Source of the DNA: Escherichia coli O157:H7
GTDB lineage: Bacteria; Pseudomonadota; Gammaproteobacteria; Enterobacterales; Enterobacteriaceae
Reading direction: 5' to 3' (one strand)
DNA length: 64,000 nucleotides
NCBI RefSeq assembly: GCF_013167455.1
Contig: NZ_CP038328.1
Position numbers and translations under genes: made by a program. The notes under the pieces were generated by a model. The model was not told the DNA's origin and made no database searches. It was given only the letters and a program-made list of their open reading frames with translations. Each line of letters starts with the position of its first letter. Within the stretch, counting starts at the first letter, position 1. This document shows, piece after piece, positions 20,276-29,866 of the stretch.

Positions 20276-20292
20276 TTTGGTCGGCACGAGAG
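20276..20292. repeat. attL core (direct repeat of the tRNA-Pro 3' end)
   Basis: TTTGGTCGGCACGAGAG is identical to 29850-29866. Confidence 0.9.
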
Positions 20293-20353
20293 TAGTTTAA
20301 TTGAGTATGTAACTACATGATTTTAAATAATATGCTTGATTCAACTTTTAAAC

Positions 20354-20377
20354 CGTATAACTAAACGTATAACTAAA
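20354..20377 (+). promoter_or_regulatory. two tandem 12-bp arm-type repeats CGTATAACTAAA
   Basis: The same 12-mer occurs four more times at 29665-29720 next to the integrase gene. Typical arrangement for integrase arm-binding sites. Confidence 0.65.
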
Positions 20378-20559
20378 ATCATTTGCTGAAAAAGTGTACA
20401 ATTTAAATGCGAGTTTTCCTGTGGTAAAAGCTCCAACCGTAACGATGTTCGTTATGGTTGCCTTGATGGTCTGCGTGGTCATTATGACCATTCAGGATTT
20501 GAAGGGTGACGCTTCCGACTTCCTCAAATTGAGGTTTCCGAAAATATCAGCGGGTTAGG

Positions 20560-20633
20560 CCAGAGTGCAAATTTGCACTCTGGAACAATTCCAACCAGTA
20601 ATCAGCGCAATTTTGCGCTTTGCTTTAAGTTCA
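20560..20633. repeat. noncoding module A: 24-bp perfect palindrome plus conserved 28-mer
   Basis: CCAGAGTGCAAATTTGCACTCTGG at 20560-20583, then CGCAATTTTGCGCTTTGCTTTAAGTTCA at 20606-20633. The 28-mer is identical to 20825-20852. Confidence 0.8.
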
Positions 20634-20791
20634 GCGAGTAACCGAAGGCGGAATTACGCCCTCGGTACTCACATATGAGAAACGATATTTCTTCCACCGA
20701 TACCCTTTATTTGGGTATCGCGAGTAAGCCCCAAAATCTGGGTGTTACTCTTACTACCCAAACTACGGGTATTTTCCGTAATTTCATGGTC

Positions 20792-20852
20792 GAGTTGCAG
20801 ATCTGCAACTCACCCACCAGCCAACGCAATTTTGCGCTTTGCTTTAAGTTCA
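20792..20852. repeat. noncoding module B: 20-bp perfect palindrome plus conserved 28-mer
   Basis: GAGTTGCAGATCTGCAACTC at 20792-20811, then the 28-mer at 20825-20852. Same order as module A, 219 bp away. Confidence 0.8.
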
Positions 20853-20857
20853 ACCAG

Positions 20858-21139
20858 TTACCGCCGTAACCGCTCCGGCTTCTTCCAGTGGTACGTAATT
20901 TTTGCTTTTTCCCTGTACGTCTGCACGCGGCGACGGTAGGCCAGCATTTCAAGAACGCGGATCCGTATGTTGCGCATATCAACGCCATTAAGTTCTATAC
21001 CATCACGGCGCATCACCTCAGCAACCACACGCGCGTAATTTTCGGCGGTCACGCTGTACGGCTGCGCGGTTTTTTCGTCAGCCTGCTGGCTGATTCCGGC
21101 GACGCGGCGGATTAATCCCAGTATTTCGGCTTCTGTCAT
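20858..21139 (-). CDS. hypothetical protein (93 aa), last gene of the satellite late operon
   Basis: ATG preceded by GGTGGAG. Follows the capsid-like gene. I recognise no motif. Confidence 0.6.
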   Translation of the reverse strand: MTEAEILGLIRRVAGISQQADEKTAQPYSVTAENYARVVAEVMRRDGIELNGVDMRNIRIRVLEMLAYRRRVQTYREKAKITYHWKKPERLRR

Positions 21140-21180
21140 TTCTCCACCTGGTCAGCTATTAAACTGCGAAAATTTCGTAA

Positions 21181-28052: not shown

Positions 28053-28062
28053 TCCAGGATTG

Positions 28063-28314
28063 TTACCGCCATTTTTTGGGCCTGCCTCCGATCTTCATAG
28101 ATGCCGGACGTACGACCTTATCAATACTTACCGCCAGATTTCTGGAAGCGCCACGGGATACCAGAAAATCTACTACCTGTTTTTTTGATGGGGCCGTCGT
28201 TCTGTCCTCCGGATCGTAGGTTGACCAAAATTCATGCTGAACCATCAGGGCCAGTTGCAGCCCGTCGCAATTGCATCTGATATTTTTTTGCATCTTAACG
28301 GTTTCATGTTTCAC
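28063..28314 (-). CDS. small putative DNA-binding protein (83 aa)
   Basis: The C-terminal segment KKQVVDFLVSRGASRNLAVSIDKVVRP...GGRPKK looks like an HTH with a basic tail. Downstream of int. Confidence 0.45.
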   Translation of the reverse strand: MKHETVKMQKNIRCNCDGLQLALMVQHEFWSTYDPEDRTTAPSKKQVVDFLVSRGASRNLAVSIDKVVRPASMKIGGRPKKWR

Positions 28315-28391
28315 GGCCTTGTCGTTAAATTTGATGCAATTATACGACGGTTTTACATGGTTTTCGTAGTTTTTACTGGTTTTCTGTACAG

Positions 28392-29633
28392 CTACACGGC
28401 TCGGATACCCCTTTTACCACTGGCGAGGGTTACGCCCGTCGCCGCGGCCTCGACAAATTCGCCCCACCAGCGCATCAGCACGATGCGTTTTTCTATGTAG
28501 TTGCTCCGGTTGTATGCCCGTCTAACTTCGTTGGTGTCGACGTGGGCAAGTGCCGCCTCTATTACGTCCGGCTCGAATCCTTCCTCGTTCGCTGCTGTGC
28601 TGAATATGGCGCGTAATCCATGAGACACCAGCACGCCAGCGAATCCCATACGCCGCAATGCTGCGTTAGCTGTCTGGCTGTTCATCGGCTGCTGTGGGTC
28701 TTTCAGACTTGGGAAAACGTAATTGCGGTGGTGGCTGATTGGTTTCATGGCCTCCAGCACCGCCATAGCCTGACCGGAAAGCGGGATAACGTGATCCCTG
28801 CGCATCTTCATGCGTCCGGCAGGTATCGTCCATTGCTTCGCGTCCAGGTTGATTTCATCCCACCGCGTTGATGACGCTTCGGCGGGACGGGTTACGGTCA
28901 GTAACTGCCATTCAATCAGTAATCTGGTCTGCCGTTCTGTTGCCGATACTGATAAAGCCTGCATAAGCTCGGGCAGCTGTTCGGGGCGGATTGTTGGCAT
29001 ATGTTTTTTTACAGGTGAGGGAAACGCCTTACGCACATTCATAGCCGGATTGGCATCAATCAGCCCACTGTTGGCGGCGTAATCCATTACCTCATTAACG
29101 CGCTGTAAAACCCGCTTGAGTGTTTCCAGGTTGCCGCGCTCCTTGATGGGGGTAAGCACTTCAACGAACCTTCGGGCGGTGAGGGTATCTATTGGCGTGT
29201 TGCCGATGAACGGGAATACATATTTATCCAGCGAACGCCAGATGTCTTTAATCGTGTTGGGGGCCAGATTCTGGCTGATTTTCACCTGGTACCATGCCGC
29301 CGCCACATTTTCGAACGTGTTCCCTTGTCTTCGGGCCTCTGTCTCTCTTTTTTGCCTCTCGTGGTCCTGCGGGTCAGTTCCGGCACTGATTAACGTCCTG
29401 TACTCGCTACGGCGTTTTCTGGCATCAGCCAGGGAAACATCTTCAAGCGATCCAAAACTCAGCAATATTCTTTTTTTGTCCGATGGTCGGTAGTAGGAAA
29501 ATCTCCAGAGTTTTGATCCAGACGGTTTGACCAGGAGAAAAAGCCCTCCGCCGTCCTGCAGGGTGTACTCCTTTTGCGCTGGTCTGGCTGCTTTGATCTG
29601 CACTGTGGTTAATGGGTGTGTTTTTCTCGCCAT
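28392..29633 (-). CDS. int: P4-type tyrosine integrase
   Basis: I chose the start MARKTHPLT (413 aa). N-terminal pattern LT..QIKAA.P..KEY.L.DGGGL.LLV.PSGSK.WRF.Y typical of P4-like integrases. C-terminal catalytic residues in HGLR...ST and ...LAH......Y. Adjacent to the tRNA. Confidence 0.9.
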   Translation of the reverse strand: MARKTHPLTTVQIKAARPAQKEYTLQDGGGLFLLVKPSGSKLWRFSYYRPSDKKRILLSFGSLEDVSLADARKRRSEYRTLISAGTDPQDHERQKRETEARRQGNTFENVAAAWYQVKISQNLAPNTIKDIWRSLDKYVFPFIGNTPIDTLTARRFVEVLTPIKERGNLETLKRVLQRVNEVMDYAANSGLIDANPAMNVRKAFPSPVKKHMPTIRPEQLPELMQALSVSATERQTRLLIEWQLLTVTRPAEASSTRWDEINLDAKQWTIPAGRMKMRRDHVIPLSGQAMAVLEAMKPISHHRNYVFPSLKDPQQPMNSQTANAALRRMGFAGVLVSHGLRAIFSTAANEEGFEPDVIEAALAHVDTNEVRRAYNRSNYIEKRIVLMRWWGEFVEAAATGVTLASGKRGIRAV

Positions 29634-29664
29634 ATGTCTATGATTCCACACGAAAAAACAGGGT

Positions 29665-29720
29665 TTTAGTTATACGGCTTTAGTTATACGCCAGCCCGTA
29701 TAACTAAACGTATAACTAAA
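29665..29720. promoter_or_regulatory. four arm-type 12-mers (two inverted TTTAGTTATACG, two direct CGTATAACTAAA)
   Basis: Copies at 29665-29676, 29679-29690, 29697-29708 and 29709-29720. Same 12-mer as at 20354-20377. Confidence 0.65.
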
Positions 29721-29743
29721 AAATCCGGCTGATAGCTTATAAA

Positions 29744-29844
29744 TCCGGTGATGTTCGGTGACTAAAAAACATAAAAAAACCCGCCAATCAAGTGATTAGC
29801 GGGTTATCCCTGTCTTATCCGGTGCTTTCCGGTGATATCCGGTG
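29744..29844. promoter_or_regulatory. TCCGGTG box cluster between int and the att core
   Basis: TCCGGTG at 29744, 29818, 29828 and 29838 (the last three phased at 10 bp). Variants TTCGGTG at 29754 and TCCGGCT at 29724. Confidence 0.6.
29764..29804 (-). terminator. element-encoded terminator now serving tRNA-Pro
   Basis: On the minus strand, ACCCGC-u-AAUCA..UGAUU-g-GCGGGU followed by UUUUUUUAUGUUUUUU, 48 bp downstream of the tRNA 3' end. Confidence 0.7.
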
Positions 29845-29849
29845 GGCGA

Positions 29850-29866
29850 TTTGGTCGGCACGAGAG
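29850..29866. repeat. attR core (overlaps the tRNA-Pro 3' end)
   Basis: TTTGGTCGGCACGAGAG is identical to 20276-20292. Confidence 0.9.

Follow-up and report, generated by a model that had tools for sequence, protein, structure and literature searches.

A block at positions 20276–29866 of a 64,000-nt stretch of Escherichia coli O157:H7 DNA (NCBI RefSeq assembly GCF_013167455.1, contig NZ_CP038328.1; the whole stretch is hereafter called the window) is very probably a classical Gram-negative phage-inducible chromosomal island (PICI) of the SatelliteFinder 'Type A', which is apparently intact, operates by the general mechanism of such islands and represents an allele of the EcCI11128/EcCI11368.1/EcCIED1a.1 group at the 3' end of proL by yejM. 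De Sousa et al. define a PICI by an integrase, an AlpA-type regulator, a primase-replicase, a capsid-morphogenesis gene and a small terminase subunit (TerS), with tail, holin and capsid-forming PICI (cf-PICI) genes forbidden. They counted 375 'Type A' elements containing all five components; 97% came from E. coli, and the medians were 9.5 kb and 15 proteins.

We listed every open reading frame (ORF) of at least 40 aa in the block, scanned the candidates and assigned genes from Pfam, PHROG, NCBIfam and Rfam. The PICI core was complete, with all five genes intact, and the block agreed item by item with the description of de Sousa et al. An integrase gene lay at one end of a site-specific insertion with flanking repeats, at a site that is not used by prophages, and a regulator of the AlpA type (rather than MerR or Stl) was encoded beside int. 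The primase-replicase module was followed by an iteron origin, with no primase catalytic domain detected. The capsid-morphogenesis gene scored above the Pfam gathering score and matched a PHROG major head protein, and the small terminase subunit was recognized by Terminase_2 and phrog_641. No portal, large terminase subunit (TerL), protease, tail, holin, endolysin or lysis gene was found among the scanned ORFs; thus, none of the forbidden components (tail, holin or cf-PICI head genes) was present, and the size fell within the range of about 8–15 kb. A sequence-only reading of this DNA had proposed a helper-dependent satellite-type island in the proL 3' end, with portal, TerL, protease, tail and lysis genes all missing. 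The ORF scans agreed with it, and its gene list was largely borne out by the four family collections.

The class itself is ordinary, as PICIs of the same plan and at the same site have already been catalogued and a standard tool would label the element. Table S1 of Fillol-Salom et al. (2018; PMC6092414) places EcCIATCC25922, EcCIED1a.1, EcCI11128, EcCI11368.1 and two Shigella PICIs at the 'yejM-luxR' site. Mageeney et al. (2023) described a four-zone plan for Gram-negative PICIs (GN-PICIs), consisting of Integration, Bro, Replication and Late zones. Of 29 reference PICIs, 21 had a capsid gene, and the authors remapped many of the reference elements to tRNA genes; they also stated that the Rfam C4 and isrK models match several GN-PICIs. 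The earlier statement that the layout is not a textbook one could not be upheld in view of the five-component definition, the catalogued yejM/proL PICIs, the late module of EcCI11128 (96–97% identical) and the reported C4/isrK matches.

Insertion site and allele mosaic

The block was bounded by an exact 17-bp direct repeat. The distal att copy (20276–20292), a displaced copy of the tRNA 3' end, forms the edge of a region collinear with O157:H7, and the tRNA-proximal copy (29850–29866) matches it exactly. The 17-mer, TTTGGTCGGCACGAGAG, occurred exactly twice in the window, where no copy was expected by chance. ARAGORN and Rfam (tRNA, 54.9 bits) set an intact tRNA-Pro(GGG) gene, proL, at 29852–29928 on the minus strand; the 3' end of the tRNA, with its CCA, thus falls within the right repeat copy. 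A terminator scan identified a bidirectional intrinsic terminator hairpin in the yejO-proL gap (20238–20270), with a 14-pair stem and T-runs on both sides. The hairpin lies 5 nt from the left repeat copy and directly after the tRNA in the empty site; it is the native proL/yejO terminator, displaced by the insertion. The earlier description of the repeat, with its right copy as the tRNA 3' end and its left copy beside the ancestral terminator, was thus confirmed by ARAGORN/Rfam, the terminator scan and the empty site.

The joined-flank search that the sequence-only reading had advised did reveal empty sites. A 600-nt query of the two flanks with one repeat copy matched O157:H7 genomes in a single piece at 100% identity, and the two flanks were adjacent in 3784 of 5426 complete E. 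coli genomes. When the whole window was compared with O157:H7 PV15-279, two collinear blocks were obtained (1–20292 and 29850–59510; 99.95% identity). Together with the joined-flank matches, these blocks indicated that the repeats delimit a presence/absence polymorphism to the base, with an insert of 9,574 bp plus one repeat copy. The G+C content of the insert was 47.6%, against 51–52.5% in the flanks. Three outcomes had been named beforehand as speaking against a satellite, and none occurred: the block did not turn out to be the end of a larger complete prophage in related strains, HMM searches gave no portal, TerL or tail gene, and the repeats did not fail to delimit the polymorphism.

The integrase arm sites are formed by six exact copies of CGTATAACTAA, against 0.65 expected by chance in the window. 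Two stand in tandem at 20354–20376 on the plus strand and four at 29666–29719, two inverted and two direct; the window holds no copy outside the two ends of the element. The 'att core' published for yejM PICIs (Fillol-Salom et al., 2018) is essentially this arm-type repeat and not the tRNA-end crossover region. In the O26/O111 relatives (loci L001, L002 and L004), the distal att repeat carries a 4-nt deletion (TTTTTGGCACGAGAG), and the window copy is exact at 17 of 17 positions. The neighbouring yejO (17586–20177, plus strand) is an intact autotransporter ORF of 863 aa in the window and likewise in O157:H7; it is annotated as a pseudogene, with an internal stop or frameshift, in those O26/O111/O103 strains in which related islands occur.

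Two known alleles have recombined in the window copy. The segment from int to icd (26383–30050) was 99.9% identical to the island of strain 97-3250, and the segment from the capsid gene to the 120-aa ORF (21124–26419) was 96.9% identical to the island of O111:H11 strain 88-19539 (L001). A 600-bp end segment with orf93 is common to 88-19539 and EcCICFT073 but not to the O26-type alleles. The non-coding end region at 20560–20863 contains a degenerate 53-nt duplication of the orf93 3' end (20592–20644 and 20811–20863); L001 has this region too, and the O26-type alleles L002 and L004 lack it. A repeat search located two perfect or near-perfect palindromes in this region (20560–20583 and 20787–20816), comprising CCAGAGTGCAAA/TTTGCACTCTGG, and TGGTCGAGTTGCAGA with its near-complement. 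All relatives at the same site were 8.5–11.4 kb long and bounded by yejO and proL. The integrase was found at 90% identity or more in about 280 of the 5426 complete genomes and the terS-capsid module in 219, and the full combination was found in none, the best match covering 90% at 95% identity. Modular recombination of PICI alleles is shown here by an O26/O103-type regulatory half joined to an O111:H11-type replication/late half; the chromosome around it is O157:H7-like, and in its relatives the site is empty.

We also considered whether the block is an immobile, decaying PICI remnant that is no longer induced, replicated or packaged, possibly for want of a compatible helper. This would fit a recombinant allele that was not seen intact in the complete genomes, the altered C-terminus of the capsid homolog, the degenerate duplication in the end region, and relatives that carry pseudogenes in the Bro zone as well as the deletion in the distal att copy. 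However, the 17-bp repeats and all six arm sites are exact, and all core ORFs are full length relative to their homologs. The late genes showed ratios of nonsynonymous to synonymous substitution rates (dN/dS) of 0.12–0.44, which indicates purifying selection. The flanks are O157:H7-like, and that lineage is rich in lambdoid prophages with a matching head module, as this strain presumably is. Decay is therefore improbable, and the late-gene dN/dS values with the exact repeats and arm sites favour an intact island.

Integration, regulatory and replication genes

The integrase gene (28392–29651, minus strand) encodes a P4-int type tyrosine integrase with an arm-binding domain (Pfam Arm-DNA-bind_3, Phage_int_M and Phage_integrase). 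It was 33.7% identical to P4 Int and 100% identical to the O26/O103 alleles. An 83-aa ORF in the int-alpA gap (28063–28314, minus strand) was 94–100% conserved in relatives and had no family match in Pfam, PHROG or NCBIfam. The AlpA-type helix-turn-helix regulator/excisionase of 68 aa (27689–27895, minus strand) matched the PHROG family 'excisionase and transcriptional regulator' (E = 2.5e-6) and shared 87–100% identity with its counterparts at the alpA position in catalogued PICIs, the identity to EcCI11128 being 87%.

A divergent cassette on the plus strand encodes a ribbon-helix-helix (RHH)-like protein of the YlcI/YnfO family (60 aa; 27127–27309; NCBIfam YlcI_YnfO_N, 60.5 bits against a cutoff of 30; phrog_949), which is a candidate repressor, and a 62-aa ORF of phrog_21027 (27352–27540) that was 100% identical to its EcCICFT073 counterpart. 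The terminator scan placed a hairpin terminator after the latter at 27630–27662. The YlcI/YnfO cassette is likewise present in EcCICFT073 and EcCI11128. A promoter scan gave a leftward promoter-like site by consensus match only (27029–27108, minus strand; −35 at 27068, −10 ending at 27040). Three exact GTGGCTGACA boxes were located at 27099–27108, 27054–27063 and 27029–27038, two of them overlapping the −35 and +1 positions of the promoter-like site, and these repeats are a candidate operator of the divergent control region.

Two structured RNAs were identified on the minus strand: an isrK-type RNA (seqA/target-like leader; 26730–26806; Rfam RF01394, 66 bits against a gathering score of 50), which ends in an intrinsic terminator at 26734–26752 according to the terminator scan, and a full-length C4/P4-CI-type immunity RNA (26621–26708; RF01695, 77.6 bits against 45). 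Both exceeded their Rfam gathering scores and stood in the order isrK then C4 upstream of an icd-like gene; the 271-nt leader had a folding z of −5.3. The Icd-like (host cell division inhibitor-like) ORF encodes 62 aa at 26378–26566 on the minus strand (NCBIfam phage_ICD_like, 57.2 bits against a cutoff of 25; phrog_1743 and phrog_6196). A second icd-like ORF, which had been proposed upstream of the RNAs, turned out to be a leader/'ash family' reading frame that overlaps both of them. Identical copies of the isrK/C4 segment occurred in 142 complete E. coli genomes, some of them within O26/O103 islands at proL. It is a variable cassette, since it was absent from EcCICFT073, EcCI11128 and strain 88-19539.

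The replication genes are also on the minus strand. A 120-aa ORF of phrog_15327 (26065–26427; PHROG E = 5e-70), likely 106 aa when read from Met15, was 91% identical in 88-19539. The 99-aa DUF4222 protein (25759–26058; Pfam E = 7.6e-17) was encoded directly upstream of pri/rep in all PICIs compared. Pri/Rep itself (610 aa; 23945–25777; phrog_864, E = 4e-194) contains D5_N, the superfamily 3 (SF3) helicase domain (DUF5906) and the Pox_D5 C-terminal domain according to Pfam, and no primase-domain match was found. The gene had been read as an SF3 primase-helicase; the helicase part was supported by the D5/SF3 domains, and the primase part was not. Pri/Rep was 50.7% identical to residues 320–771 of P4 alpha, 47.7% identical to the functional EcCICFT073 Pri and 98.9% identical to its 88-19539 counterpart. 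In EcCI11128-type islands an otherwise unrelated RepA-family helicase takes its place, and the N-terminal 135 aa of Pri/Rep were 72% identical to the N-terminus of that helicase, which suggests that this part may be a swappable N-terminal adaptor domain.

Immediately downstream of pri/rep, the repeat search located the replication origin (23697–23946), in which GGTGAACAGT iterons surround AT-rich DNA. This 250-bp field holds seven exact and about five degenerate copies of GGTGAACAGT in both orientations, and its position and layout are those of functional GN-PICI origins (PMC6092414). Weak Rfam microRNA matches at 23771–23931 were rejected as artefacts of the iteron inverted repeats. The first gene past the origin is a 79-aa ORF of phrog_1231 (23418–23657, minus strand), which was 85% identical to its EcCICFT073 counterpart.

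The replication and RNA modules bear on a further alternative, namely that the block represents a novel P4/PICI hybrid satellite class with a P4-type replicon and RNA immunity and a PICI-type late module. The scores of the C4 and isrK RNAs are as good as those in P4, Pri/Rep and Int share 50.7% (alpha 320–771) and 33.7% identity with their P4 homologs, and the C4/isrK segment is a variable add-on, lacking in EcCICFT073, EcCI11128 and 88-19539. Yet Pri/Rep is about equally related to EcCICFT073 Pri, C4/isrK in GN-PICIs has already been reported and the identical segment recurs in the 142 genomes, the same att site and late module are catalogued as PICI, and the five-gene core is the published PICI definition, with Type A elements of this size common in E. 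coli. The element does contain int, an alpA-type regulator and an alpha-type replication protein; according to de Sousa et al., these alone do not separate P4 from PICI; the model of P4-like satellites has seven components (int, alpA, alpha, epsilon, sid, delta and psu). In a tblastn search with all P4 proteins, only Int, alpha (320–771) and the cI-region ORF matched the element, and sid, delta, psu, epsilon (Ash), cII, gop and beta had no counterpart in it. Because sid, delta, psu and epsilon are absent, the element is not P4-like by the definition of that family, and a hybrid class is very unlikely. The lack of sid, delta and psu had been noted in the sequence-only reading and was reproduced here; from its P4-like replicon and immunity, the C4 module is genuine (P4 has the same isrK and C4 pair), whereas membership of the P4 family was not sustained.

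Late genes, cos-like site and putative helper phages

The late genes of the PICI are likewise on the minus strand. TerS (162 aa; 22312–22800; Pfam Terminase_2, E = 2.6e-10; phrog_641, E = 3.6e-43) was 46–47% identical to TerS of Stx1a-, Stx2c- and Stx2a-converting (Stx, Shiga toxin) and PPompW lambdoid phages, with dN/dS of 0.24–0.44. A longer, GTG-initiated terS ORF of 208 aa was rejected, as its extension translates the cos region. Next to terS, a 53-aa ORF (22139–22300) corresponds on its own to the motif conserved at the C-terminus of TerS, DP..vL..IMN.....R..AA..L (phrog_641 positions 89–125, E = 1.1e-6). BLASTP of the 53-aa protein against TerS gave nothing and profile methods were needed; hhalign returned a probability of 95.4% and E = 1.7e-8. 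In distant PICIs too, both in Serratia and in helper-embedded PICIs (HE-PICIs), the ORF immediately precedes the short capsid gene, and copies in other genera lie at L011 9840–10004 and L013 9838–9999; its dN/dS was 0.18. Its product might, speculatively, be a terminase mimic or interference factor that enters or poisons terminase assemblies.

The capsid gene (21181–22158) encodes a stand-alone short HK97-type major capsid homolog of 325 aa (Pfam Phage_capsid, 28.4 bits against a cutoff of 24.2; phrog_617 and phrog_10). Stx-type lambdoid phages encode a protease-capsid fusion, and the homolog was 25% identical to the C-terminal capsid part of this fusion, with the protease half lacking; it had 569 relatives in a representative search. 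As Pfam, PHROG and tblastn agree, the capsid homology is established. PDB sequence searches with the capsid homolog and orf93 gave no matches. A 1-nt indel adds 14 aa to the C-terminus, an extension missing from all homologs, from E. coli to Serratia and Hafnia. TerS and the capsid homolog both matched the same head module of Stx1a/Stx2c/PPompW phages, in which the order is HNH, TerS, TerL, protease-scaffold-capsid fusion and portal. It is scarcely credible that capsid and terS are what is left of a complete head-packaging module, as a cf-PICI or prophage fragment: the homologs themselves, the cos beside terS in helper-like order and the proposal of Mageeney et al. that PICI late zones were captured from helpers would fit this, but the portal, protease, TerL, HNH and head-tail connector genes that define cf-PICIs are missing, same-site relatives all measure 8.5–11.4 kb between yejO and proL, and the conservation of the terS/53-aa ORF/capsid arrangement across genera points to a stable minimal module and not a random truncation.

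Further small ORFs complete this part of the PICI. The 64-aa ORF (23093–23287) was 100% identical in EcCI11128, with dN/dS of 0.12 against 88-19539; its earlier description as RHH-like found no support in Pfam, PHROG or NCBIfam. The coiled-coil-like 53-aa ORF (22928–23089) was also 100% identical in EcCI11128, and equivalent 55-aa ORFs occur in Serratia and HE-PICIs. Residues 3–25 of this ORF showed a weak likeness to the portal gene region of PPompW/705R7 (56% over 23 aa, E = 2e-4 in a tiny search space), which may be due to chance. The last gene, orf93 (93 aa; 20858–21139; phrog_1561, PHROG E = 3.9e-54), was 85% identical to the last EcCICFT073 gene by tblastn. We rejected orf93 as RppA: the latter, of 144 aa, is encoded by c1503, and nothing in the element matches it. 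PADLOC analysis of ten small ORFs gave no defence-system match. Elsewhere, one prophage (L013/L014; ENA ERZ15232907 NODE_13, 132618–165494) carries two PICIs, one in the terS-TerL fragment gap and one in the protease-capsid gap; both hold the 53-aa ORF and short capsid module and are of the helper-embedded kind described by Mageeney et al.

Just upstream of terS, a cos-like block (22860–22925, minus strand) aligned to the HNH-terS intergenic region of phages 705R7 and PPompW. It contains a predicted 10-nt cohesive-end sequence, CGCCCCCCGT, at 22874–22883 with conserved flanks. The cos of the Stx1 phage Lys8385Vzw has been mapped by PhageTerm to CGCCCCCCCT, with 3' cohesive ends (PMC7946995), and the cos-like block aligned to the ends of the Lys8385Vzw genome record, whose cut falls inside that block. 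The block was kept in all four relatives examined (L001, L002, L004 and L015). We searched for the lambda-type cosN (GGGCGGCGACCT) as well, and obtained chance-level matches with two mismatches only, none of them plausible in the element.

A cluster of AAAGTTAC/GTTAC repeats with 12-bp spacing was found at 22571–22844 on the minus strand, two of them in the gap from the cos-like site to terS and four or more within that gene. Six of the seven window copies of AAAGTTAC fall in this cluster, where 1.8 copies would be expected in 64 kb. These repeats are candidate cosB or TerS-binding sites. Helper-type phages have five GTTAAC between cos and terS and no GTTAC cluster, whereas the island has no GTTAAC there. 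The homology of its cos-like site to the cos of Lys8385Vzw, with the GTTAC and GTTAAC repeats, suggests HNH/cos lambdoid phages of the Stx type as helpers. Lys8385Vzw was obtained from strain O103 RM8385, whose proL PICI shares the terS-capsid module and has an int that is 100% identical. We consider this specific model of helper and cos, drawn from sequence comparison, to be evenly balanced between right and wrong; neither this cos site nor this helper pairing was found in the literature searched. In the phage vB_EcoS-705R7 (L007 2082–2282), HNH/cos/terS are closely preceded by an opposite-strand gene for a DUF3950 protein, which belongs to the YlcI/YnfO family. Its occurrence in helper-type phages, together with the regulator-like gene of the island, hints that the two may share a regulatory or packaging-related role.

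A wider proposal is tentative, and we lean against it: TerS-bearing proL PICIs, with the window copy among them, may have specialised in parasitising the HNH-TerS-TerL cos lambdoid phages found in enterohaemorrhagic E. coli (EHEC), including Stx1a- and Stx2c-converting ones. They would have kept the helper cosN, switched cosB together with their own TerS, and added the 53-aa TerS mimic and a protease-less capsid paralog, so that packaging is redirected and the yield of Stx phage lowered. If Stx-converting phages are the helpers, such islands could influence the production and spread of Shiga-toxin phages. Published mechanistic work concerns the TerS-less, Rpp-dependent EcCICFT073, and the predicted cos, cosB-like repeats and helper provide a directly testable packaging model for TerS-bearing E. 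coli PICIs.

Proposed life cycle and comparison with known systems

In the resting state, the promoter at about 27068–27040 would be overlapped by the three GTGGCTGACA repeats, to which the divergent YlcI/YnfO RHH-like protein probably binds. A leader transcribed from this promoter would stop at the isrK-type hairpin, and the C4/CI-type RNA would also hold the leader off, so that the Icd-like/DUF4222/Pri-Rep operon would stay silent. A helper phage would then trigger alpA; AlpA with Int would drive excision and turn the operon on, and Pri/Rep would replicate the circle from the iteron origin at 23697–23946. We infer the resting, induction and replication steps by homology to EcCICFT073 and P4, the regulatory model being built on sequence features and analogy. 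For EcCICFT073, experiments have demonstrated AlpA-dependent induction, Pri/ori replication and cos packaging by lambdoid helpers.

Packaging would use the cos at 22860–22925, with the predicted 3' cohesive end CGCCCCCCGT, where the shared cosN would be cut by the helper TerL and HNH. The island TerS would read the GTTAC repeats as a switched cosB and recruit helper TerL and HNH, leading to preferential packaging of the island. Such a switched cosB with its own TerS would be a TerS-based counterpart of the EcCICFT073 Rpp mechanism. The probable role of the capsid homolog and the 53-aa TerS-motif protein is to modulate helper capsid assembly or terminase, and the effect could be Ccm-like size redirection or interference. 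Small capsids are made by PmCI172 and SaPIbov5. As arithmetic only, five concatenated copies (47.9 kb) would fill helper heads of 44–51 kb, and two would suit a T=4 shell.

Several observations weigh against an intact, functional PICI of this kind. The Pfam Phage_AlpA match to the 68-aa regulator (E = 0.0028; 17.9 bits) lies under the cutoff of 21. The promoter scan gave fewer sites in the window sequence than in shuffled sequence, and the promoter call therefore depends on the consensus match and the operator-like repeats. The cos-like overhang of the island differs from the mapped phage cos at one of ten positions, and no helper prophage lies within the window. The capsid homolog carries a unique 14-aa C-terminal extension (...LAKADFSGINPDMVIPVSG; 21181–21225), and its AlphaFold2 model, built from an eight-sequence alignment, was unusable (mean pLDDT 47). 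In EcCICFT073, the capsid homolog, an unrelated protein of lambda-E type, is dispensable for transfer and interference, and the packaged DNA was all phage-sized, with no small capsids; a Ccm-like role of the island capsid homolog is uncertain for this reason, and by analogy the capsid homolog and the 53-aa protein may be dispensable for transfer. The literature searched gave no functional study of TerS-bearing E. coli PICIs, and the statements on induction, the helper, cleavage at cos and what the capsid homolog and the 53-aa protein do are inferred.

Among known systems, EcCI11128 is located between proL and yejO, the same site as the window element, and has the same arm-type repeats. The amino-acid identities between the two were 94.5% for Int, 87% for AlpA, 100% for orf64 and the coiled-coil-like 53-aa ORF, 96% for TerS, 92% for the TerS-motif 53-aa ORF and 97% for the capsid homolog. 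EcCI11128 and EcCI11368.1, PICIs of E. coli O111:H- 11128 and O26:H11 11368, respectively, have a cos-like block identical to that of the window element. They differ from it in a RepA-family helicase in place of the D5-type Pri/Rep, in lacking the 600-bp orf93 end segment, and in the 4-nt deletion of the distal att copy.

The prototype EcCICFT073 has the same order as the window element: int, alpA, divergent cassette, Icd-like gene, DUF4222, Pri, iteron origin, phrog_1231 ORF, capsid homolog and a final 93-aa ORF. Its att site is roxA-phoQ, unlike the proL site of the window element. EcCICFT073 has no TerS and uses a lambda-type cosN with RppA, which retargets the helper TerS, whereas the window element has its own TerS and a different cos. 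The features of an Rpp-type cos PICI (RppA/B/C and lambda-type cosN) were not found, with no RppA match and no lambda cosN in the element. The capsid homolog of EcCICFT073 is lambda-E-like and accompanied by a decoration protein, and that of the window element belongs to the HK97 family.

P4 shares with the window element an arm-type tyrosine integrase at a tRNA 3' end, an AlpA/Vis-type regulator and helper cos packaging, the last being a prediction for the window element. Both have the isrK(seqA)-then-C4(CI) RNA pair upstream of the replication operon, which scores 60.8 and 74.9 bits in P4. The SF3 helicase of the P4 alpha type is 50.7% identical to Pri/Rep over 452 aa, and alpha residues 1–320, the primase domain, have no homolog in the window element. 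Unlike P4, the window element has its origin directly downstream of rep, TerS and a capsid homolog, and its predicted helper is lambdoid and not P2.

The cf-PICI EcCIEDL933 shares the int/alpA/rep backbone with the window element and has HK97-type capsid and terS genes. However, cf-PICIs are about 15 kb long and carry a full head and packaging set (portal, protease, connectors, HNH and TerL), none of which is in the window element. Finally, the cos-packaged staphylococcal PICI SaPIbov5, which has Ccm, resembles the window element by functional analogy only: it combines a helper-type cos with a capsid homolog and parasitises HNH-dependent cos phages. It differs in being Gram-positive, in its Stl-type regulation and in having no TerS, and it is the element in which size redirection by Ccm has been proven.

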